Shown: one piece after another, positions 6,508 through 59,535 of the stretch
Layout of the letters: each line of letters starts with the position of its first letter
How positions within the stretch are numbered: the first letter of the stretch is position 1
NCBI GenBank assembly: GCA_030390025.1
Contig: CM059436.1
Coordinates: 71,300,001-71,364,000, forward strand
Reading direction: 5' to 3'
Length of the DNA: 64,000 bases
Origin: Squalus acanthias
Lineage: Eukaryota
Position numbers and translations under genes: made by a program
The notes under the pieces: generated by a model
Database searches by the model: none
Told to the model about the DNA's origin: nothing
Seen by the model: only the letters and a program-made list of their open reading frames with translations

Positions 6508-7074
6508 TTAGCTGCAGAAGTCAAATAGTTAAAAAAAATTACCTGTGTGTAGATTAGGAGTTGAATTTAAGCCTCACGGCATGCAGCCAATCCCCAGAGT
6601 GGAATACTAACCTCTTAATATACAAAACTGCTGAGATGAGAAGTCCAGGCTTGCAGTAACTCATTCACCCACAGGCAATCCTGTGAAAACAGCAAGAGGG
6701 AGTTCCTGCAACCCCAAAAACCACCTAGATTTTTCAACGAAGAAAAACTTTAATACCAAAAAAAGTTGAAATTGGTATAAATGTTTCTATGAATAAAAAG
6801 CTTTCTTTCATGAAGAGATTCTTTTTAAATAGTAATGAGCAGGAGATCTTAAAAAAAAAAATCCTTCCTGATTTTGGAAGTGAAGAAGCAAGCGACTGCT
6901 GTTTTATTGTAGAATACAAGTCAGGAAAAGTAACAGCCACCTGACACCGACAAAATATGTTTTCATACCAACAAAGTATTAGCCATATGTTTTCTGTGCG
7001 TTTAATGTTGTGAAACAATTGGGGTGTAGGAAAAGGTAATGGGATATTAGTCAATTTGTGCTTGTCTTACTGAG

Positions 7075-7200
7075 TATTTACAGCACAGAAACAGGCTATT
7101 CGACCCAACAGGTCCATGCCGTGTTTATGCTCCACATGAGCCTCCTCCCACCCCTCTTCATCTCACCCCATCAACATGTCCTTCTATTCCTTTCTCCCTC
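7075..7200 (-). mobile_element. Short CR1 3'-tail fragment
   Basis: TACAGCACAGAAACAGGC...TTATGCTCCAC; same tail as 6185, 32180 and 53790. Confidence 0.75.
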
Positions 7201-7358
7201 ACTCCCATCCTTTTAAATAGGGTCACAGATATTAGCAACCCACCCCAGCGTTATGCTTAGTAAAGTCAGTTAATTATGTGGATAATTAAAAAATGAATTC
7301 GGAACTTCAGATGATACCTGCTATAAGCCAGCTAATAGAATAGCAAGATTATAAAGTA

Positions 7359-8116
7359 TTGGCCCAGAATTTGCGGTCAGCGGTGAAGCGACGGTGCTCG
7401 CCACTGACCTCAAAGAAAACTGCCCACAAAGATCTAGCGATCTCTGTGGCATCGATTTCAGCTCTCCCGACCTTTGTTTGAATTTGGCACCAAATGAAGT
7501 GAATCCTAAACATCTAGCCACAGTGATGTCAGCAAGCTGGCTAAGCAGCCAATCACATTAAAGAATTCTCACAGACAGCAAATCAGGAAGTAAAATGCAC
7601 AGATTCTAATTTACTTCTTATAAATTTTACAGAGAGCAAAATAAAGATTGGGACATACACATAGGATTAAGGTAGAAGTTGAAATATCATAAACAAACTT
7701 TAAAAAAAATTATATTAAAAATTTGTCATTCTTATCATATGAATGGAAAAATTTGACATTCCACAAATATAAAATTAGTTTTTCAGGGCCAAAACAGTTG
7801 TTCAGCAGTCAGTACGGCATTAAAAAACCAGTTACCCCTTTATCAACAAGGCTTAAAGTTTTGGGGAATTTTTAACAGCGCTATTCCATCGTAAAAGGGG
7901 AAGTTTTCATCCTTATATGTGATTTCAACTGATTGCCGACTCTGGGGACTTCCACAGCGCAACCTGTGGCGGAGCAGTGAATGACTGACCGTAACTTCAG
8001 GATTTCCACGTTTATCTGCGCATGGGCTAAATCCTGAAGTTGCGGTCAGTTTCAGAGGGGTAATGACGACGATGCTGACAGTTTCGCCGTCATTACCACC
8101 GCAAAATTCGGGCCAG
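7359..8116. mobile_element. MITE-like element, copy 1 (imperfect 19-bp TIRs, TA flanks, four internal hairpins)
   Basis: Left TTGGCCCAGAATTTGCGGT vs reverse complement of right end CTGGCCCGAATTTTGCGGT (15/19); TA at 7357-7358 and 8117-8118; second copy at 20948-21455. Confidence 0.85.
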
Positions 8117-8657
8117 TATGAATAACTCTTTCAGAGGAGAGTCCTAAAAGTTAAATGAAGAAAGTCATACAGCATAACAGTTTTACAAAGGTTGACACTT
8201 GTGAAAACACAAAATATTTTTATCTGCATTATCCCTCCAGGATACATAGACCCTGAATGTCCTGCCAGCTGCAATGGCGGCGCTCCCACCTGCCTATTCT
8301 TTGAATTCTGACTCCCGCCCACTCTCTGGCTCAAGGGCAATTATATATGCAATACAGCGAAGGCAAACAATTGCATGAAGGAATCTGGCATTTTAAAGTT
8401 TAAATTTTCCCCCAGATACCCTCAACATTTAGTGCTGCTCGGGTGCCAATGGTGGGAAATATGTTGTACAACATTATTTCTCTCATTTTCTGCATTATAA
8501 ACAGCCACCAAATCCTACACAAGTTCTGATGGGCGGAAAAAAATGGGTATCTGGTGTAACTGGATCCTCCACTCCCCCCCCCCCCACCCCACACCCCCAC
8601 ACACACTTAATTTCCAGCCCATCCACCCAGATTATGCCAATTTGTGGAAATTTGGGT

Positions 8658-10324
8658 TAGTCATCTCTGGCCGTACAGACTAATGTCCATAGGCAGGTTA
8701 GAGACCAGTGGAACAAAATCACAATTGGCATTCCCTTGCCAGTAGGATCATATTGCTCATTTGTAGTACTCTTTTTACAGTCAGTTTATTATAAAAGGAA
8801 ATTGCCTCACTTTATATAGTGCACAAGATTTCCGATTAGAAGTACATAGCTGATGTACTGAAGACACGTACTGGAGAGTAGTGTTTAAACTGCATCAAAT
8901 TTTGCTAGCAATGTACTGCTCAACCAACTCAATGTGTCCCACATGTATTCAACCTTACCTGCAGTGATTTATTAAAGAAAAGTAGGAGTTTTAACAACAA
9001 GGCCGTGCTTTACTATACCCAAGCAATCAACCCCCCCGAAAAAAACTATACCCTTCTGCTCCACTTGGCCCCACAAAAATAATATCGAACTTAGTTTGCC
9101 TGGGCCTCTTCTCCTTCATTGCCAGCAGAAATGACGGGAATGTGCACAGTGCACTCTCCAACCATTTCCAACTTAAAATGGCAGTCGGGGTCCTAGGACT
9201 CCAATTTGCATATTGCAAGTGGCCTACCGTCTATAACAGGCAGGTGCTTTGTTAGCCAATGGTAAGCCCCTTTCTTAATGGCACCGGCCGCATAGTCGGG
9301 GTAAATGAGGCGGTAAGGCTATCAACGCCATTTTGAGGCCATGACTGCTCTGTTAACGCCAGGCGATACAAGTTAAAATCAATCCCAAGATTTAAAAAGA
9401 CTTGTTAGAAGTATGACAGAGTCCAAAATTTGTGGCATACACCCAATTCCTAATAAGCCCCTCCTCTACTCCAAAAATCAGATTTAGTATTTTGTATAAT
9501 CTCATGGAGGGATAACAACAACAACTTGCATTGATATAGCGGATTTAATGTAGTAAAAACGTCCCAGGGCGCTTCACAGGGGTGATTTATCAAACAAAAT
9601 TTGACACCGAGCTAAGGAGATATTAGGACAGGTGACCAAAAGCTTGGTCAAAGAGGAGCATCTTAAAGGAGGAAAGAGAGGTAGAGAGGCAGAGAGGTTT
9701 AAGGAGGGAATTCCAGAGCTTAGGGCCTTGGCAGCTGAAGGCACGGCCACCAATGGTGGAGCGATGAAAATTGGGGAGGGAAAACCATATTATAATAGAC
9801 TACTGCAACTGGCAAAGATTTAGCTGAGACGCAGGTTCATAACTTGTGTTACATTTTCCATAAGACAATAGTTTAAAAAGTTTAACATTAGAAAAAAATC
9901 ACATTCATTTTTCGCAGAGGACAAGAATTTGCAAATTTTTAAAAAATGATCGTTTTTTGTGAGGTTGTTCCGGCAGGTTGAAGTATGAACTATGTGCTAA
10001 AGTTACTGTGTTTTTTCAATAAATCACTGCAGGTAAGGTTGAATACATGTGGGACACATTGAACTGGTTGAGCAGTACATTGCTTGTAAAAGTTGAAGCA
10101 GTTTAAACACTGCTCCTCAGTATGTGTCCTCAGTACATCGGCTATGTAGTGGTAATATGGAAATTTGGGTGCAATATTATCTGTGGCATTGTCCCTTTGT
10201 ATTAAACTGACTGTAAAAAGCACACTTTTACAAATGAGCAATATCAGTCTATAGACGGGGAATGCCAATAGCGATTTTGCTTCTGTGGTCTGTAATAGAC
10301 ACTAATCGGTAGAGCAAGAGACTA
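8658..10324. repeat. Long inverted repeat (arms about 8658-8975 and 10015-10324)
   Basis: 8908-8973 is the reverse complement of 10018-10083 at 64/66 nt; alignable similarity continues outward about 250 nt. Confidence 0.92.
9514..9778 (-). mobile_element. L2-clade LINE 3' fragment (inside the loop of the inverted repeat)
   Basis: (AAC)n-TTGCATTGATATAGCG tail and GAGGGAATTCCAGAGCTTAGGGCC body as at 1965-2388. Confidence 0.9.
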
Positions 10325-10721
10325 TGGCCCAGATATTCCTTCCCCATACATGGGCGCTGGACAGGTGGGAGTGCACCAGATGTGCGCTCTTCCCGTCCAG
10401 CTTACCACGTTCCCGAATTTCGTGTCATGTGCCATTAGCATGAACTGAGCTTCCTAGAATTGCCTTGCATTGGGAATCAGAGGTGGAATCAGGGTCCAGC
10501 TAAAGGTATGAGAGGCCATCTCTAGTGTTTCTTCTGGACTTCTTGTTATATTCAGGCTGCATAGAGTGACACCACTATTCCCAGCCAGATGGGAGATGAA
10601 TGGGTAATTCCCCAGCCAATCACGCCTGGAGACCACACTGCTGTAAGTGACTGGGATTGATTTTACACACATCATTTGTATTATGTAACTATTCTCCACT
10701 CGCTGCAATTTGCTGGTGAAA

Positions 10722-10833
10722 TCATAAAATCATAGACTAGTACAGCACAGAAGGAAGGCATTTGGCCCATCGAGTCTGCGCCGGTTCGTTCGAAGAGCAA
10801 TCCAGTTAGTCCCACTCCCCCGCTCTTTCCCCA
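10722..10833 (-). mobile_element. CR1 3'-tail fragment
   Basis: ATCATA repeats then TACAGCACAGAAGGAAGGCATTTGGCCCAT; similar to 61838. Confidence 0.75.
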
Positions 10834-10888
10834 TATCACCCTGCTTTTATCGGGAGACGTTGCTGCAGTTTCAGTCATGAGTTCTCTT

Positions 10889-10990
10889 TTTAAATAGACT
10901 CTGTAGACTGTTTGCTGTAGTGCGCTGTTTAAGTAGATTCTGTAGACTGTTTGCTGTAGTGCATTGTTTAAGCAGACTCTGTTTGCTGAG
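10889..10990. repeat. 39-bp tandem repeat, about 2.4 units with decaying subunits
   Basis: Near-identical units TTTAA(A/G)TAGA(C/T)TCTGTAGACTGTTTGCTGTAGTGC(GC/AT)TG at 10889 and 10928, partial third at 10967. Confidence 0.85.
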
Positions 10991-13900
10991 TAAATAGACT
11001 CTGTTTATTGTAAAACAAACTGTTTGCTGTGAGTCCTGCCACAAGTCCCGCCCTGCCTCCAACTCATTGGCTGACACAATGGTGTCAATAGACACTCTGT
11101 ATATTCAGGGGCTTGTGGATATATTGGAGATTTTTCTCAGTTTTCATTGAACCAGTCTACACAACTAGTGTGCAATCCACAACCAAAATACAAAAATCAA
11201 ACAAAACCTATTGAAAATAACTTTATTGTATTACTAAGCTGATATTTAGTTACTCAAGCAATGTTAAAAGACAGTTATTGCAAGCACATTGTGATTGGCT
11301 GATTTTTGGTCATTCCCACTAACAACACTGTATATAATGAGACTGTTCCTTGTAAGGCTATGTTGAATTGCCCTTTTGCTTGTGGGTATCAAAATCTATG
11401 AAAAAAGGCACTTAATCTTTTTATTGGGAAAAAAAGAGGAAAACACAGCTTTAGAAAATTTGCACAATTGCTGTTGTCATCAAAATATGGTTGTTTAACC
11501 ATGGCTATACTGCAATATAACAGTGAAAGGCAGATACACTTAAAGGGTTTATCGAAAGGTTATTGGTGGCAACATTTTTTTGGTTTGTTTGCCAGACAAT
11601 CTGCTGAGATGATGCAGCATCGGCCAAAATGGGCCATAATGTGGAGAAGATAGCATCACACCGCTTGCACATAATGTCATTGCAATGAAAATGTTGCATG
11701 GCCATTTGGCTGTTCCCCTTCCTGAGGCATATGACACGACCCTTGAATCTACTGTATTCAAATCCGACCAGCGTAACGAAATGGCAGTGCTGGTTTGAGA
11801 TACAGCTAGTGCTGCGTGACAGAACAAATGACACTGCAGTTTTTAAACATAATTTGTCCAGAGAGTACAAGACATTTCCATCATTGTTTGCCACAATTTA
11901 TTTGTGAGATTTATTCATAAGGTACCATGTTATTTCAGTTGTCAAAGACAACAGTTCGGGAAACATCAATACTTATAGCAGTAAATAGTTCTACATTGGT
12001 TCATGATGACAAGTGTTTGTTGGAGAATAAGTACAGACCTCCCCATTTTCTTGTGACTAGCAAAAAAAAGAAGAATGAATATGTCATAAAGGAATTATAT
12101 TTTCTTCGTATTTCTTTTCTAAGCAGTTTCGGGGAAAACAAGTTACCAAAAAATGCCAAAGAGAATAAAAAAATCAACAATATTACCAGCATCCATATTT
12201 TGATTAACTTAAACTACTTTGAAGCGAATTTCGCTTTCAGTAATCTCAAAACCTGCAGATAAAACATCAGGGGAGGCTGAAATATAAGGAGAAAGAGACA
12301 CGCACACATTGTTAAAAATGCAGTAGTGTAACACATTCGCAACCATGAAAGAACAGGCAACTAAAATATTTTTATAGCGTGGCTAGATTTTCGAGAGGAG
12401 GAGGGAAGAGTGCCTTGACCTATGTGAAGGGGAACCCCTGCAGACATAACCATTCTGACCCATTGAATGGTCTGAATACGATAAATGCTGCTTTATCTTT
12501 TCTTGAAAGGAACAAGATAGAGAGGGGCCTAAATGCCTGGGCATGCTTAAATGGACAACTGTGCGACGTTTAAGCTGAGTGGGTGTTTGAAATCTGAGCA
12601 CTCCAACAGGCTAAGAGCTGCCACAGGTCACCTGCTGCCCTCCATGGGGATAGGCCCAGACCTTACAAGAAATTGCCCATGGACAGATTGTAGAACAAAT
12701 TCCTTTCTCTACTGGCTGGCCTCTTTCACCAGACCATGGCCTATAAAATTTTGTAAAAACAATTCTAAAAAAAAAAAAAATTCAAAGGGCAAGCGGCTGT
12801 GATGAAAGGTTTGACAGTTTTGACTTACAGTTCATGCTCTTCATTACTAGAAAATTGAATTGTGGGGCCATGGCTCAGCAATGCTTGCTACAGATCCTAT
12901 GGCATTCTTAAATAAAGCCTGGTTGTTGTGCTTTTTTTTCCTCTGTGCTCGCAGCTGTAAAACAGTAATATGTCAGCTTCACTGATTTTAAATCGTATTT
13001 TGACTAAATTGTGATAAGCACAAAGACAGCTTACACCTCGACTTGCAATATGCCATATATATAGAATCAGGTATTGGCAATTAAAGTGGCATTTCAAACA
13101 ATCATATCAAAAGAGATTACCCTAAATTCATCTGATAATGTCATGTAATGCCTAGAGAGATTGTATGGGAAGTTACAGACCATTTGAATGGCTCAAACTC
13201 ATCAGGACTAAGACAGTAGGAATGCTCACATGATGGCTGACTAAGTGCGTTGCATACGTGTGGAGCGACTGAAAGGCCTGTGTGCAGGCTCTGCCCCCTG
13301 CAAACCCCCCCCCCCCCCACCCCACCCCACCCCCTCCCTCCCAAATTGCCTGGGGCAATCTAACAGTGCCTCTGGCCGCCTAACTCACTGGCCTGCTGCC
13401 TAATTGCCACACGGAGTCCGTGACACACGGGCAGATGATATGACATTTTCAGTTCCTGTCACTAGTGAAAGCCACAACACGGCTCACACTAGTTGCTAAG
13501 AAGCTGTCAGAAACTGTTAGCAGTTGGCAAAAGTTGCCCTATGGCATTTCCTCATGGCATCAGCAAAACGAGCATAAATCACCCAGTGGAGCCTGCTGCT
13601 GTACTAATGAGGCTGTAAGCTTGTTTATGGACTAGCGTCATTTTTATGATTATTTCCACCTTTTCAGTTTTCCCTTCATAATCTGCCTGTGTTTGGAGGC
13701 AGGAGAAGTCAAATCTAGAAATGAAGTCACTGCTGACATTTTGCAAATGTGGCCCGTAGCTGCTACCATATGGCTCTCTGCGAGTTAGCTCATTGGAGTC
13801 TAAAAAGAGAGAGGGAAAAAGAAATTAGCCCCAGACCTCACAGAGGTGATTGATGGGATCAAATTACAGTGAAAATGGAAATGCCAATAAAATTGATGCT

Positions 13901-16761: not shown

Positions 16762-16944
<183 letters not shown>

Positions 16945-35651: not shown

Positions 35652-36065
35652 TATATAGAGGCCTATATTTCCTAGAGTTTAGAAGAATGAGAGGTGATCT
35701 CATTGAAACATATAAAATTCTTAAGGGGCTTGACAAGGTAGATGTGGGGGGATGTTTCCCCTGGCTGAGGAGTCTAGAACTAGGGGTCACCGTCTCAGAA
35801 TAAGGGGTCGGCCATTTAGGACTGAGATGAGGAGAAATTTCTTCACTCAGAGGGTTGTGAATCTTTGGAATTCTCTACCCCAGAGGGCTGTGGATGCTTA
35901 GTCGTTGAGTATATTCAAGACTGAGATCGATAGATTTATGGACACCAAGGGAATCAAGGGATATGGGGATAGGGCAGGAAAGCGGAGTTGAGGTAGAAGA
36001 TCAGCCATGATCTTATTGAATGGCGGAGCAGGCCTACCCCTGCTCCTATTTCTTATGTTCTTATA
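35652..36065 (+). mobile_element. CR1 LINE 3' fragment (relatively young)
   Basis: LEFRRMRGDLIETYKILKGLD..., RVVNLWNSLPQRAV; tail ATTTCTTATGTTCTTAT. Confidence 0.92.
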
Positions 36066-47255: not shown

Positions 47256-47611
47256 ACATGAGAACATAAGAAATAGGAGCAGGAGTAGGCCATATGGCCC
47301 CTCGAGCCTGCTCCACCATTCAATAAGATCATGGCTGATCTTCCACCTCAACTCCACTTTCCTGCACTATCCCTATATCCCTTGATTCCCTTAATATCCA
47401 AAAATCTATCGATCACGGTCTTGAATATACTCAACGACTGAGCCTCCACAGCCCTCTGGGGTAGAGAATTCCAAAGATTCACAACCCTCTGAGTGGAGAA
47501 ATTTCTCCTCATCTCAGTCCTAAATGGCTGACCCCTTATTCTGAGACTGTGACCCCTGGTTCTAGACTCCCCAGCCAGGGGAAACATCATCCCTGCATCA
47601 ACCCTGTCAAG
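47256..47611 (-). mobile_element. CR1 LINE 3' fragment
   Basis: ORF 47348-47665 LDRVDAGMMFPLAGESRTRGHSLRIRG...RVVNLWNSLPQRAV; same subfamily as 41708. Confidence 0.92.
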
Positions 47612-49699
47612 CTCTTTTAAAGGTGTATTTCTAGGAGATTCAATTAAAATGATGTATGCTCTCAAATGGGAATCTAATTTGTTAAGTTGGCCCTCGTTTC
47701 ATTGACATTTTAAAAAAATGACTCTATTGAACTATTACATATAAACAAACTGCAAAGAGAGAAAAATAGTTTTTCGTAAGTAAGGATTAAAATAACACTT
47801 TCAAGTTGGTCTTCAATTGAGGGCCAAACACATTTAAATTGGTCATCCTTACCTATTTTATGACTCTCATGTGGACCACTTATTTGAACTTCTGCGTATT
47901 TTTGTTCATTTTTCGGAACACTTTTTCCAGCTAAAGTTTGTGTTTCAGTTTGGAGAGTGAAAGTTTATTCAGGCAATTGAACAAATATCCTACTTGTTAA
48001 GCCACAAATAACTTAAACGATGGCCAGCCCTGATTGCAGGTTATATGTCTGTTGAAGGACATTTGGGGCTCTTGAAAACAAGCTTAATTGTTGTCAAGCT
48101 TTCGAGCAACTAAAAACGAAGAGCTTATTTCAGTTGGAGGACTGTAGCATCTTCTGGTGTATGTCCTTGGACTCTGCCATGTTCTGTGCTAACTGGAAAT
48201 CCTGCAGCTAAGTCTTTCCCTGTCCTCTCAACCATATTGACCCATCGAGCTCCAATTTTCACTGTCTGTCCAACAAACTGCAAAAACATTTCCTGTTATA
48301 TAGATCCTCTCCAACTTGCACTCACAGTTCAAAGAGACAACATTATTACATATTGAAACACTTTACAAAAGCCTTGCATATTGTATATTTTCAAAATGCA
48401 TTCAGAAATGTCATTAGTCTTTGCTTCCATATGAGCTTCTGCCAGCAATAACCCCATTTCTCATATCCCGTCACAAGGAATATAGAACATCACAGGTGGT
48501 GTCCACTGTTGATGTTGTGGTGATGTGACATAGTAGCATCTCAAAAGTGGGACATGCAGGCCAACCTCCAACCTGACTGAATTGCCAATCTCAACCATAT
48601 TGCAGTTGGTCGGCACTACATGGAGGCAAGTTGCCCTCCTGTGGCGGGAGGGGGATTGGAGGTTCATCCATCCATAGACCACTGTCCTGTGCCTCCTTGT
48701 GACCAGTTCAAATCAGCATTGGCCTGGAGCATATCTCATAACCTGGGGCTGAGGGGGAGCTCAGCAAGAAAATAGAGAAATTCATAGCCTCAGGATTTTT
48801 AAAAAAACTTAAAGGTCCGTCTTCTCACATCACAGCTTGTGTTAATAGTTGCAAAGTGGATTCCTCTTTTGATCTTTGCATAAACTTGTTGCGTAGCTGG
48901 TTAGGTTCAGCACTTTGACACAACCTTCTTCATGATTTCATATCCTAATCATGATATTTTATCATTAAATTGTTGTCCCAGATGCTTCAGTTGCTCCCTA
49001 TTCTCAGCTTGCATGTACACCACACGGAGCTTTGCTAAGTGTTGGAGAATGATGATGAACTAAAAGGAGCAGTGTTAAACATTCCAGAAATTGGTAAAGG
49101 ATGGCTGTTCCCATTCTCACCAGACTGTCGTATCTTCACATTTTCACTTATATATAAACCAGGATCCGTATCCAGAATGTCAGACATCATCGCTGACTTC
49201 TTAATGTAGCTGGTGCTTTTTCACGTGTCTTGATGATGAACGTATTAAGCTGCACAGCAAATTCATAACCTGCCAATCATTAGTTTATTGGCACTGTAAC
49301 ATTTTTAGCTCCCCTCTCAAAACCCTAAACTTCCTTGCTGTGCATGCGATAAGTTATGAAGCGAAGTCTCAGAAGGTGTGTCATGAAGGTGAAGCTGCTG
49401 TTCTCCTGCAGGTAAATGACTTGTTACCTGGATCTGCACAGTTGCTAGACCCTTGCTATAGTGCACGCTGATCTGAGCCGGACCAGCTCTCAGGAGCAGT
49501 GATAGTGGAGCTCTGCTGTGACTCATACAAAGAGCTCTACTCCTACAGCAGCCAACTTTTAATGTGCATAGGGGCATCTGCCTTCTCATGATGTTAAAAA
49601 GGTTTCATTCCATCTTAAAATTCCCAAGAGGTGCAACGCACTGCCTCTGTAGTTTTGAAATGCAGCTTCACACCAGTATAGCGTTCTAGTGTACCTCTT

Positions 49700-50270: not shown

Positions 50271-52967
50271 GTAAAGCCCAATTGGTGTGAGCATCCTCCT
50301 TGCTTTCGTGTCAGTCACACTGCTACTTTTGACGTTGACATAGCAGAAACCTTTTCTCATTGGTGTGAATGCAACTGTATTAATGCACTGTAAATGTACA
50401 TTTTAGTGTAACATTCATTGAAACGAGCATAAAATGTTCGGTGATAAGGCACACCCACCAGATGTGATATATTGAACATGTGCCTGCCTCTATTTTTGCT
50501 CCTACATGTTATTTTTCCCCCTGGTTAGCCAGGACTCTCGTCTAAACAACTACATTTTCTCTGGACGCACATGCAGTGAATTGATTCTGAAAAGGGGGCA
50601 CTCAGGCTTTCCCTACATAATCGCTGTTTGATGGCTCTTTACTGGACCTCGAGGTGTTAAAGCAGATCAAATAGAGAGCACTCCCAACAGGACCACAGCA
50701 TTACTACAGCATTTCTACATCATCCTAATCATTAATTTGTATTGTAAGATTTGAAGTTAATTTTGTTTGCTCTCCTAATGCATTGCAGCTCTCCCAGTGG
50801 TCTGTGGCATATCCATTCTCAAATTCCCATTCGAATCGATTGTTTGCAAATAATTAAGCTTTTAAGAGATAGTGGTTTGAAGCTAGTGCACACAACAAAT
50901 TAGAGGTCCAAATCATTATATATAGTACAATGCAAAATGTACCCTGATAGTCTGAGGTGACTATGGTGATTAAAGTATATTTGACTACAAATATCTGCTA
51001 AATATTTAGGTAGTAACGGCTGCATACTGGGGACTGTGAGCGGAGCCAGTGTAAGCAAGGGGTGCTGGGGGAACATCAAGTACAAAAGTTAACAGCTGCG
51101 TTGGATCCACAATGCAGGAGTTTAAGGAGCTAGCCATATTTAAGAATGAATTCTTTATTGTCTAGCAGCATCGGCAGCTTTGAAAGCTGTCCTTTTGCTT
51201 ATCTCCGAATGATGGTGTAATGTCTGCCAGGGCCTATGGTACAGGCTTTGCTCTGCTCGTGGGTGGGAAGGCAACATTAAATGGAATGTTTGTATAGCAG
51301 CCTGCCCTGTGGCAAGTTGGTTCATTGTGAAGTCATGGGTTTCTATCAAGGACAGTAATTCATTCACTTCTTCTAATTTGCCAGACAAGAGTTCACTTTC
51401 AGAAACTTTTATACCATATCAAATTTTTTTTCCAAGAAATGGTGTATTCCTTTTCTCCTTGATATTTTGCTTTGGGGGAGGGGAGTAACTGCGTGAAGTC
51501 ATGGTTTTCAAGTGATTAGAGCAATTATTTTTTTTCTCTAAATTCAAAAGTCATACTGGCAGGCAGTATACTGGCTGCATTAAACAACAGATCAGCTGAT
51601 CTAGGGAGTTCTAAGTCCCAGGAATTCATGTTTCCCCACATTTTTGTTGTTATTTTTAGCGTGGGCATATTATTCTGGCATTTAATTTAATTCTGACTGT
51701 CGACCAATCCTGTGCTTTTAAAAGGAAACACCAAATACTTTCCATTTGAGAATGGAGACAGAATTCTTGAATCCTAATAGCTGGAGGCTACGTATCAATT
51801 ATAGTTTAGCACATCAAATTAGATTCAGTTTATAGCAATTACCTAAAAATCAAATCACATGAAAAGTAACAGATTTGACAACAATTATTAAATAATAAAC
51901 AAGAAGGATTTATCTACTTTTTTAAGGAAAAAAGACAGCAAACTAATTTTTGAAGGTATTTTGAACAAATGAATTAGTTTCCCAAGAAAGCAGATTTTGG
52001 GCAGACTGTTATTTAGGCTTTGACCTGCCAATTATTTTCAGCATTCAATTGAACTGGTATGGATCATAACTACCCATAGATTCATTGCATTTTTCAATAC
52101 CTTTGATTTCATCATTTCAAAGTACAATTTGATTTTTTTTTAAATACAAATTTGATAAAAGAAAACTATAATATCCCTATAAGACTTTGAACAGTTCTCG
52201 GACTCCCAACATATATGAGAAATAATGTCAACTCGTCGCAACTTTCAAGGCGGCAGTTTGAGTCATACCCTTCGAGCACCGGCATGGGGTTCAGTGGTTT
52301 ACCTGGACAAAGGCTACAGTGGTTTCATCTGCATTCACCTCATAACCATCTTTGGAAGCAACAAAGTGTTAATCAGTAATCTAAAGTCGGATTGCTGGTG
52401 CTCTCTATAGGCACTGGTTCAAATTGGGCACAATGCGTAGTTTAATTTTAATGCAGCCATTATAGTGATAATATTAGCAGTGTAAAAGGTTTTACAGTGT
52501 TAAGACCACAGGGCAGTTTCTGCTAACACAGCAAGGGGTGACTGCTTAGCCGTTTAATGAAGACTCAGTTTGCCAGTTGGCACTATAAAAGTGTTTACTG
52601 TGTTGATCTGGAATTCTTTAAAAACAATTGTAGAAAACATAAATAAACAGAGTTTTTTTTAACACAGAAGATGGCCCTTCAGTCTGGCCTATTTAGACTG
52701 TAATTCAAAACGATTATAAAGGAAATCTTTGGTATACATAAAACGTTCTATTTTATACACTTCAGCTTTCTTGGGAAAGACCCTGATAGCGTTCCAATAA
52801 ACACAAAGTTATTTTACAAGTAACAGGAAACTCCCAGAACCCTGCAATCTGTAGTTACATGAGGTAATGGAAATGAGAAGAAAGCACCTCAGGAATTGAT
52901 TGTTATATCTAACCATTTACTGAAGAAGCTAGAAAATGATTGAAAATACACCAAACTTACTTTATAA

Positions 52968-53375
52968 TAAAGAAAGACTTGCATTTCTATAGCGCCTTTT
53001 ACGACCTCAGGACGTCCCAAAGTGCTTTACAGCCAATGAAGTACTTTTGAAGTGTAGTCACTGTTGTAATGTAGGAAACACAGCAGCCAATTTGCACACA
53101 GCAAGCTCCTACAAACAGCAATGTGATAATGACCAGATAGTCTGTTTTCGTGATGTTGATTGAGGGATAATATTGGCCAGGACACCGGGGAGAACTCCCC
53201 TGTTCTTCTTTGAAATAGTGCCATGGGATCTTTTACGTCCACCTGAAAGAGCAGACAGGGCCTCAGTTTAATGTCTCATCCGAAAGACGGCACCTCCGAC
53301 AGTACAGCACTCCCTCAGCACTGCACTGGAGTGTCAGCCTGGATTTTTGTGCTCAAGTCCCTGGAGTGGAACTTG
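52968..53375 (-). mobile_element. DeuSINE-like SINE
   Basis: Colinear with 25740-26130 and 40130-40516. Confidence 0.9.
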
Positions 53376-56760: not shown

Positions 56761-56837
56761 CATCCTTATCCTTCAGAAGAACAGAAGAAGCAACTGGCTC
56801 AAGATACAGGGCTTACTATTCTACAAGTGAACAACTG
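56761..56837 (+). CDS. MEIS1: MEIS-family TALE homeobox gene, next internal exon (equivalent to exon 9): PYP TALE loop, helix 2, start of helix 3
   Basis: Branch-like CCTAAC at 56727-56732, pyrimidine-rich tract ending TTTCAG at 56760, GTACGT donor at 56838. 77 nt translating [25 protein letters not shown](W), in frame with the 16787-16932 exon (phase 0 junction). Confidence 0.96.
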
Positions 56838-58989: not shown

Positions 58990-59535
58990 TTGCCTGCATA
59001 ACACCAGTGACTACACTTCAAAAGTAATTCATTGGCTGTGAAGCACTTTGAGATGTCATGAATATGCAAAAAGGTGCTATATAAATGCTCTCGCCTCTGA
59101 CTCAATAGGTTGTGGGCTCAAGTCCCACTCCAGAGTCTTGAGCACAAAAATCTAGGCTGACACTCCAGTGCAGTGCTGAGGGAGCGCTGCACTGTCTGAG
59201 GTGCCGTCTTTTGGATGAGACGTTAAACCGAGGCACCATCTGCTCTCTCAGGTGGACGTAAAAGATCCCATGGCACTATTTCAAAGGAGAGCAGGGGAGT
59301 TATCCCTGGGGTCCTGGCCAATATTTATCCCTCAATCAACATCTTTAAAACAGATTATCTGGCCATTATCACATTGCTGTTTGTGGGAGCTTGCTGTGCA
59401 CAAATTGGCTGCTGCGTTTCTTACATTACAACAGTGACAACACTTCAGAGGTACTTCATTGGCTGTAAAGCGCTGTGGGACGTCCTGAAGTCATAAAAAC
59501 CGCTATAAATGCAAGTCTTTCTTTTTTCTTTCTTC
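58990..59535 (+). mobile_element. DeuSINE-like tail (58990-59088) directly followed by a near full-length copy (59088-59535)
   Basis: GCTATATAAATGC runs into CTCTCGCCTCTGA..GGGCTCAAGTCCC; Deu domain GGATGAGACGTTAAACCGAGG; T/C-rich terminal repeats. Confidence 0.88.

Follow-up and report, generated by a model that had tools for sequence, protein, structure and literature searches.

The window, the whole 64-kb stretch of DNA that was analysed, contains MEIS-family exons on the + strand at 16787–16932 and 56761–56837; MEINOX exons, also on the + strand, are located about 60 kb upstream. With MEIS-family exons downstream and MEINOX exons upstream, all in the same orientation, the fold-back that begins at about 8658 and ends at 10324 is intronic and lies on the sense strand, and the MEIS intron location proposed by the first-pass annotation is therefore correct. 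The first downstream MEIS-family coding exon found is that at 16787–16932. Elsewhere in the genome, Meis/PKNOX N-terminal exons are present at five loci (C12, C1, C22, C3649 and C3828), two of them on unplaced contigs.

In the alignment of the two arms of the fold-back, about 8658–9049 is matched with 10324–9949. Within the arms, 8908–8973 and 10018–10083 match at 64 of 66 positions, and the left arm shows two perfect runs of 20 bases (8907–8926) and 45 bases (8929–8973), separated by 8927–8928. The core was delimited at 8907–8973 in the left copy (+ strand) and at 10018–10084 in the right copy (− strand). The right copy contains an AATAAA at 10018–10023 and a donor-like CAG|GTAAGG at 10030–10038, with the GT at 10033–10034, as noticed at first reading. 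A match of 64/66 was reached in none of 100000 column permutations. Under a model with family site rates, the best-window probability is P = 2e-5, with the choice of the best window within the arms included, and the near-perfect core reported initially is thus real and far beyond chance.

A genome search with the left arm returned at least 40 matches including both arms, i.e., at least 38 other copies. The arms had been described as matching none of the LINE/SINE/MITE families recognised elsewhere in the window; they are not unique, however, and belong to a dispersed family. The family arm is about 0.9 kb long, as estimated from alignments of copies, and its outer end runs into either of two unrelated sequences, designated A and B. 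The family layout is B end, arm, centre, inverted arm and A end, with terminal repeats. The order at the focal locus is B (7025–7365), arm (8127–8244, 8664–9051 and 9388–9473), inverted arm (10320–9941) and A (11102–11451); the element spans about 6980–11451, or about 4.5 kb, and later insertions make up about 2.7 kb of this length. The arm length of about 320 nt given earlier was an underestimate, since the left arm resumes at 8127–8244 and 9388–9473 across nested inserts. Both arms in the same orientation were found in 4 of 20 other ten-kb loci (L058, L059, L061 and L063), and two further copies (L067 and L071) keep both ends and have lost one arm. Among the papers listed by literature searches there was no description of the family, a result which does not show that it is unpublished.

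The element begins with a decayed left terminal inverted repeat of the GGGCCATATTTTCCTCTG type at 6980–6996 (+ strand), with TAT just before it, located by pairwise scoring against family B ends. The region 6965–7075, scored against 23 family B ends, ranked above all 1160 background windows; a separate, shorter HMM of the B end did not detect the left terminus. The unique B end (6980–7365, + strand) gives HMM matches at 7025–7087, 7202–7287 and 7283–7365, and is split by a common repeat at about 7073–7205. A nested insertion with TGGCCC-type inverted ends follows at 7359–8116; its junctions were read and it has matches at other loci. The outer part of the left arm (8127–8250, + strand; HMM E = 7.9e-29, 17 genome matches including itself) is separated from the main left arm by a nested MITE-like insert at 8251–8657, flanked by a TAG/TAG direct duplication and interrupting what is continuous sequence in the family. 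The main left arm of the internal inverted repeat, defined by the arm alignment and the genome copies, occupies 8658–9054 (+ strand). It is followed by a weakly palindromic, GC-richer nested insert recognised from its sequence at 9055–9389 (49% GC), which is the GC-rich loop insert seen initially, and by the inner continuation of the left arm at 9388–9473 (+ strand; HMM E = 8.3e-6, and alignment).

Near the centre of the palindrome lies the 3′ fragment of a LINE (9514–9778, − strand), whose junctions are present in relatives. That this loop insert is a common repeat was borne out by six other copies in the window; it is probably an L2, and Pfam gave no match. The right arm of the internal inverted repeat extends over 9850–10324 (− strand) according to the copy alignments, its inner limit being approximate. 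In place of its outer part there are nested inserts at 10324–11101, assigned by genome repeat matches, and no remnant of the outer right arm was found in this interval. A short tandem array of 39-nt units lies inside a common repeat at 10880–11004. The unique A end (11102–11451, − strand) was detected with an HMM from which the focal copy had been left out (E = 1.8e-31) and carries the right terminal inverted repeat at about 11435–11451, followed by TAG. A genome search with 11000–11700 picked up a common repeat and nothing else.

Both far ends carry a terminal inverted repeat and complete A-to-B copies exist, and for these reasons two other layouts, with the arms as plain terminal repeats or as the junction of two tandem elements, were dropped. 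The same TAG site (8248–8250/8658–8660 and 10322–10324) took an insertion in both arms. The two inserts have no detectable relation (score 49 against a shuffle maximum of 47.5), which leaves the copying of one insert between the arms unsupported, and the double hit by unrelated inserts suggests an insertion hot spot.

Other copies add to the picture of the family. Shorter elements with the same A and B ends and no arms were found at L146 (1501–2180) and L161 (350–1518); the termini thus serve several deletion derivatives. A small hairpin of the GAGTACTTTG-TT-CAAAGTACTC type lies near the family palindrome centre (inner arm end of L066, L068 and L075), and the fold-back junction of L059 is just past it. 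Near-perfect self-palindromes stand beside two family copies, one of 219 nt (97%) at L003 396–614 and one of 242 nt (99%) at L023 1000–1241.

The family ends A and B share a terminal inverted repeat of about 17 nt, of the GGGCCATATTTTCCTCT or GGGCCA type. According to PMC4482050, PIF/Harbinger terminal inverted repeats are mostly shorter than 60 bp with an A or G start, and most PHIS elements have 3-bp duplications; PMC3014272 gives the Harbinger target duplication as TTA/TAA. Both family ends have repeats of this length and start. The value of the end pattern derives from HMM matches to the family ends in 23 of the 30 fetched loci; a count of the 18-nt pattern in itself was not above the reversed control (149 vs. 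260). The target-site flanks are ATA/ATA in L071, TAT/TAG in the focal copy and AGA/CTA in L161, and are unreadable in L067 and L146. TTA or TAA precedes 3 of 30 ends, so strict PIF/Harbinger flanks are rare, though old flanks decay; a central A/T is present in the flank of 23 of the 30.

Young DDE_Tnp_4 elements of the same genome have GGGCCA/GGCCCA ends and 3-bp duplications AAT, ATT or ATA (5 of 12 fetched loci, with both ends resolved), and they have only the first 5–6 end bases and the flank type in common with the relic family. An exact transposase-coding partner for the relic ends was not found among the young DDE_Tnp_4 elements examined. The DDE_Tnp_4 expansion itself is very large and young, with 63886 first-look candidates, of which 150 were scored; many of the latter have open frames of 384–392 aa, in elements of about 4.5 kb (L174–L197). 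Their duplications are nearer to the ANT rule of Pangu than to TWA.

The relic is probably an old non-autonomous PHIS element, placed by its sequence at the level of the superfamily and in no group within the PHIS set. The ancient palindromic DNA-transposon relic of the first-pass annotation is thereby supported and can be specified as a non-autonomous element of PHIS/Harbinger-like type whose inverted repeat is internal. The relic is like the PIF/Harbinger and other PHIS elements described in PMC4482050, PMC9179366 and PMC3014272 in its short G-starting terminal repeats, its AT-rich 3-bp flanks and the approximately six first bases shared with DDE_Tnp_4. Unlike them, it shows no coding remnant, its family seldom has strict TWA flanks, and the position of the long inverted repeat is internal, not terminal. 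Conserved hairpin repeats of the UCON/Eulor/MER kind are old, low-copy and palindromic, with a presumed DNA-transposon origin. The relic resembles them in age, copy number and palindromic form, whereas deep conservation or covariation was not found at this locus.

The close match of the cores is peculiar to this locus. The 34 unlinked copies have 68% identity to the core, no better than to the core flanks, while the two arms are 97% identical to one another, and in four other two-armed copies the best window reaches 47–52 of 66. Measured against a 33-copy majority, five core bases are changed in both arms (C8921, A8922, C8925, T8929 and T8956) and two in one arm. Outside the core, there are 14 shared and 80 one-arm changes (Fisher p = 0.002 against the core, the limits of which were chosen after the fact). 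C8921 and A8922 occur together in none of the 33 copies. The low identity of the core among unlinked copies, together with five shared changes absent from the family majority, indicates homogenisation at this locus, and the signature of arm-to-arm conversion, with derived bases shared in a tract and few one-arm changes, is present in the core. The first-pass annotation had reasoned that its reading would fail for arms of a common repeat with an equally conserved core in unlinked copies and no covariation, editing or orthologous retention. The arms are indeed a common repeat; their core is not equally conserved in unlinked copies, and the locus is retained in relatives.

An ordinary decayed palindrome, in which the best window was picked post hoc, is very unlikely to account for these observations. 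The 66-nt tract was selected for its extreme match, and any scan of a genome tests such pairs in large numbers; the best-window probability, however, already covers the choice within the arms, and for five parallel changes the expectation is P = 1e-5 to 0.007. Against conversion, an unsampled subfamily could have been the source of the five shared bases. Two further positions, 8893 and 8905, were at one stage considered as conversion after the split from organism H and were dropped, since a cleaner alignment gives C as the family base at both.

The locus was compared with orthologous contigs from four related organisms, designated B, C, D and H; 5 of 21 listed runs, X1 among them, were used, and runs X13–X16 and X19–X21 were left out, their small shares being explicable by the common LINE piece alone. 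Divergence at the locus is about 3.5% (B), 3.5% (C), 5.5% (D) and 10% (H) among the differences listed (40 of 392 rows). A narrow comparison of 8856–8980 caught both arms, with about 8887–8949 visible and letters assigned to arms by contig depth. Organisms B and C are from one study, near-identical, and were counted as one lineage; the narrow comparison of organism D covers the left arm only.

The core is interrupted in all four relatives. In organism H, the two arms disagree at five of the 42 core bases that are visible (8916, 8925, 8927, 8928 and 8943), among which single letters may be errors, as the right-contig depth is 2.9; the H contigs are unbroken, which implies at least one further core mismatch. 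Base 8961 is absent from the left arm in C and D, the left arm of D has four visible substitutions, and the left contigs of B and C carry 22–34 unfitting letters at 8930–8934, which appear from the contig sequence to be an insertion of about 30 nt near this position. Within the approximately 63 visible bases, both arms could be seen for 13 lineage-specific substitutions, and in no case does the partner arm carry a matching change. Position 8925 is ambiguous, and the right arm could have gained the left-arm base there after the split from H. Across the core region, none of the four comparisons between species shows a divergence above the local average, and none a significant deficit (p = 0.10–0.51).

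In B and C, the contigs of both arms break at exact mirror positions (8892/10099, 8863/10128 and 8864/10127), which implies that the arms share a 30- or 31-mer at 8863–8892 (+ strand); this tract, arm-identical as read from contig ends and not base by base, has four mismatches in the genome studied here. The left contig of C differs from the left arm of this genome at no more than one site in 8863–8892, so the right arm of C must carry at least one left-arm-derived base (G8868 or T8879). One conversion would account for the B/C tract. The alternative, four changes on the branch of this genome (P = 0.02–0.17), takes a back-mutation in addition. A perfect 30-mer in one lineage, where another has four mismatches, points to short, repeated arm-to-arm conversion.

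The logic of mirror breaks recovers the known 45-nt run when applied to run X1 (breaks at 8958 and 8944). The same run bears on the question of whether reads of one arm have been polished into the other. Near-identical short repeats are prone to mis-polishing, but in X1 the right arm shows the 11 expected differences and no others, and the breaks fit the shared run. X1 may be the source of the assembly, yet its contig assembly is a separate method, and an assembly artefact is hardly credible.

Each arm differs from the family majority at six core sites, compared with 9–21 in 16 well-covered unlinked copies. Conversion alone predicts about 11 such differences (P = 0.07), and some constraint is therefore possible. 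In an unlikely alternative, both arms would evolve slowly at 8842–8973 through co-option as DNA, e.g., as an intronic MEIS enhancer, and the shared bases would be those of the source element, with no conversion involved. MEIS introns are rich in conserved enhancers, the divergence of both arms from the family majority is at its lowest around 8842–8973 (9–15% vs. 20–23%), and the cross-species rates are slightly, though not significantly, lower there. Against this alternative stand the left-core indels in B, C and D, the identity of the B/C tract where this genome has four mismatches, and the absence of the C8921–A8922 pair from all 33 copies.

The sense RNA is predicted by structure modelling to fold core to core, and the first-pass annotation had offered selection for a pre-mRNA duplex as one of two causes of the match. 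Such a long duplex (an ADAR substrate, a mask of a splice site or polyA signal, or a small-RNA source), with conversion merely supplying repairs, is quite unlikely. Apart from the predicted pairing, it is favoured by the five shared transitions, which are formally double changes, by the donor-like motif and AATAAA in the right core and by the possible gain at 8925. The excess of G-U over A-C pairs suggested just outside the core disappeared on counting, with 27 G-U and 23 A-C across the aligned arms on the sense strand (p = 0.67), and new transitions in the relatives give four G-U and five A-C. The donor-like motif was inherited from the transposon; the family base gives CAG|GTGAGG, and AGGTRAG is intact in 5 of 25 copies. 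AGGTRAG-type motifs number three on the + strand and four on the − strand of the window.

The same pre-mRNA also holds eight other inverted repeat pairs matching at 62–65 of 66, though spaced 5.6–47 kb apart. Two inverted pairs, 35728–36064 with 47258–47612 and 52966–53375 with 59119–59527, match at 88–90% over 355–411 nt, and one of them has a 51-nt perfect run. Rfam gave no match at gathering score in the 64-kb window. A core duplex is not conserved in B, C, D or H, where substitutions or indels break it; this disfavours a selected RNA hairpin, and with no clear compensation, no G-U bias and an inherited donor motif, the proposed selection is unsupported. A variant we hold to be similarly improbable is a hairpin kept pairable by moving conversion, in which a different patch is re-perfected in each lineage and selection acts only for some long duplex near 8842–8973, with no site-by-site covariation.

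Of the two causes originally offered, we favour arm-to-arm gene conversion, to which the shared bases of the core and the putative lineage tract of B and C point. The fold-back is a real feature and a good marker of conversion, and probably not an RNA structure under selection. On the reading that we regard as fairly probable, the fold-back represents a transposon's internal inverted repeat and its core the product of short arm-to-arm conversion, with no sign of selection for an RNA duplex. The arms would have been near-identical at insertion and then decayed to about 79% identity. Intrachromatid repair or template switching across the loop of about 1 kb would copy short tracts between them; the core at about 8907–8973 would have been homogenised in one or several events that preceded the split from H, and a second conversion at about 8863–8892 would have followed later in the B/C lineage. 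An already similar patch may seed further events nearby. The pairing of the pre-mRNA at the core, as modelled, is likely a by-product.

Homogenisation of arms is a known tendency of inverted repeats, described in PMC8604942 for yeast genes with arms of at least 7 bp and spacers up to 70 bp. As in those repeats, the arms at this locus lose differences in tracts that differ between lineages; unlike them, the tracts here are 30–70 bp long and the arms are about 79% identical and 1 kb apart. Neighbouring Alu copies undergo gene conversion according to PMC3670932, and nearby copies are there more alike than unlinked ones, as the focal arms are, although the latter come from a single insertion and not from two. 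Conversion is also said to homogenise the arms of Y palindromes, and Aleshin and Zhi (2010) reportedly described it for neighbouring Alu copies.

Copying between arms at the level of DNA can thus produce an intronic stem that is nearly perfect and has shared double changes. In a single genome, such copying looks like covariation, and scans for RNA structure can be misled by it. The genome studied here is rich in Harbinger-like elements, to which one further such family is now added; PMC9179366 reports none in the elephant shark and proposes that other cartilaginous fish be checked. Many copies of the family have both arms, and these offer ready markers for measuring short-tract conversion in a vertebrate lineage that evolves slowly, where the loops are 1 kb long and the arms share only about 80% of their bases.
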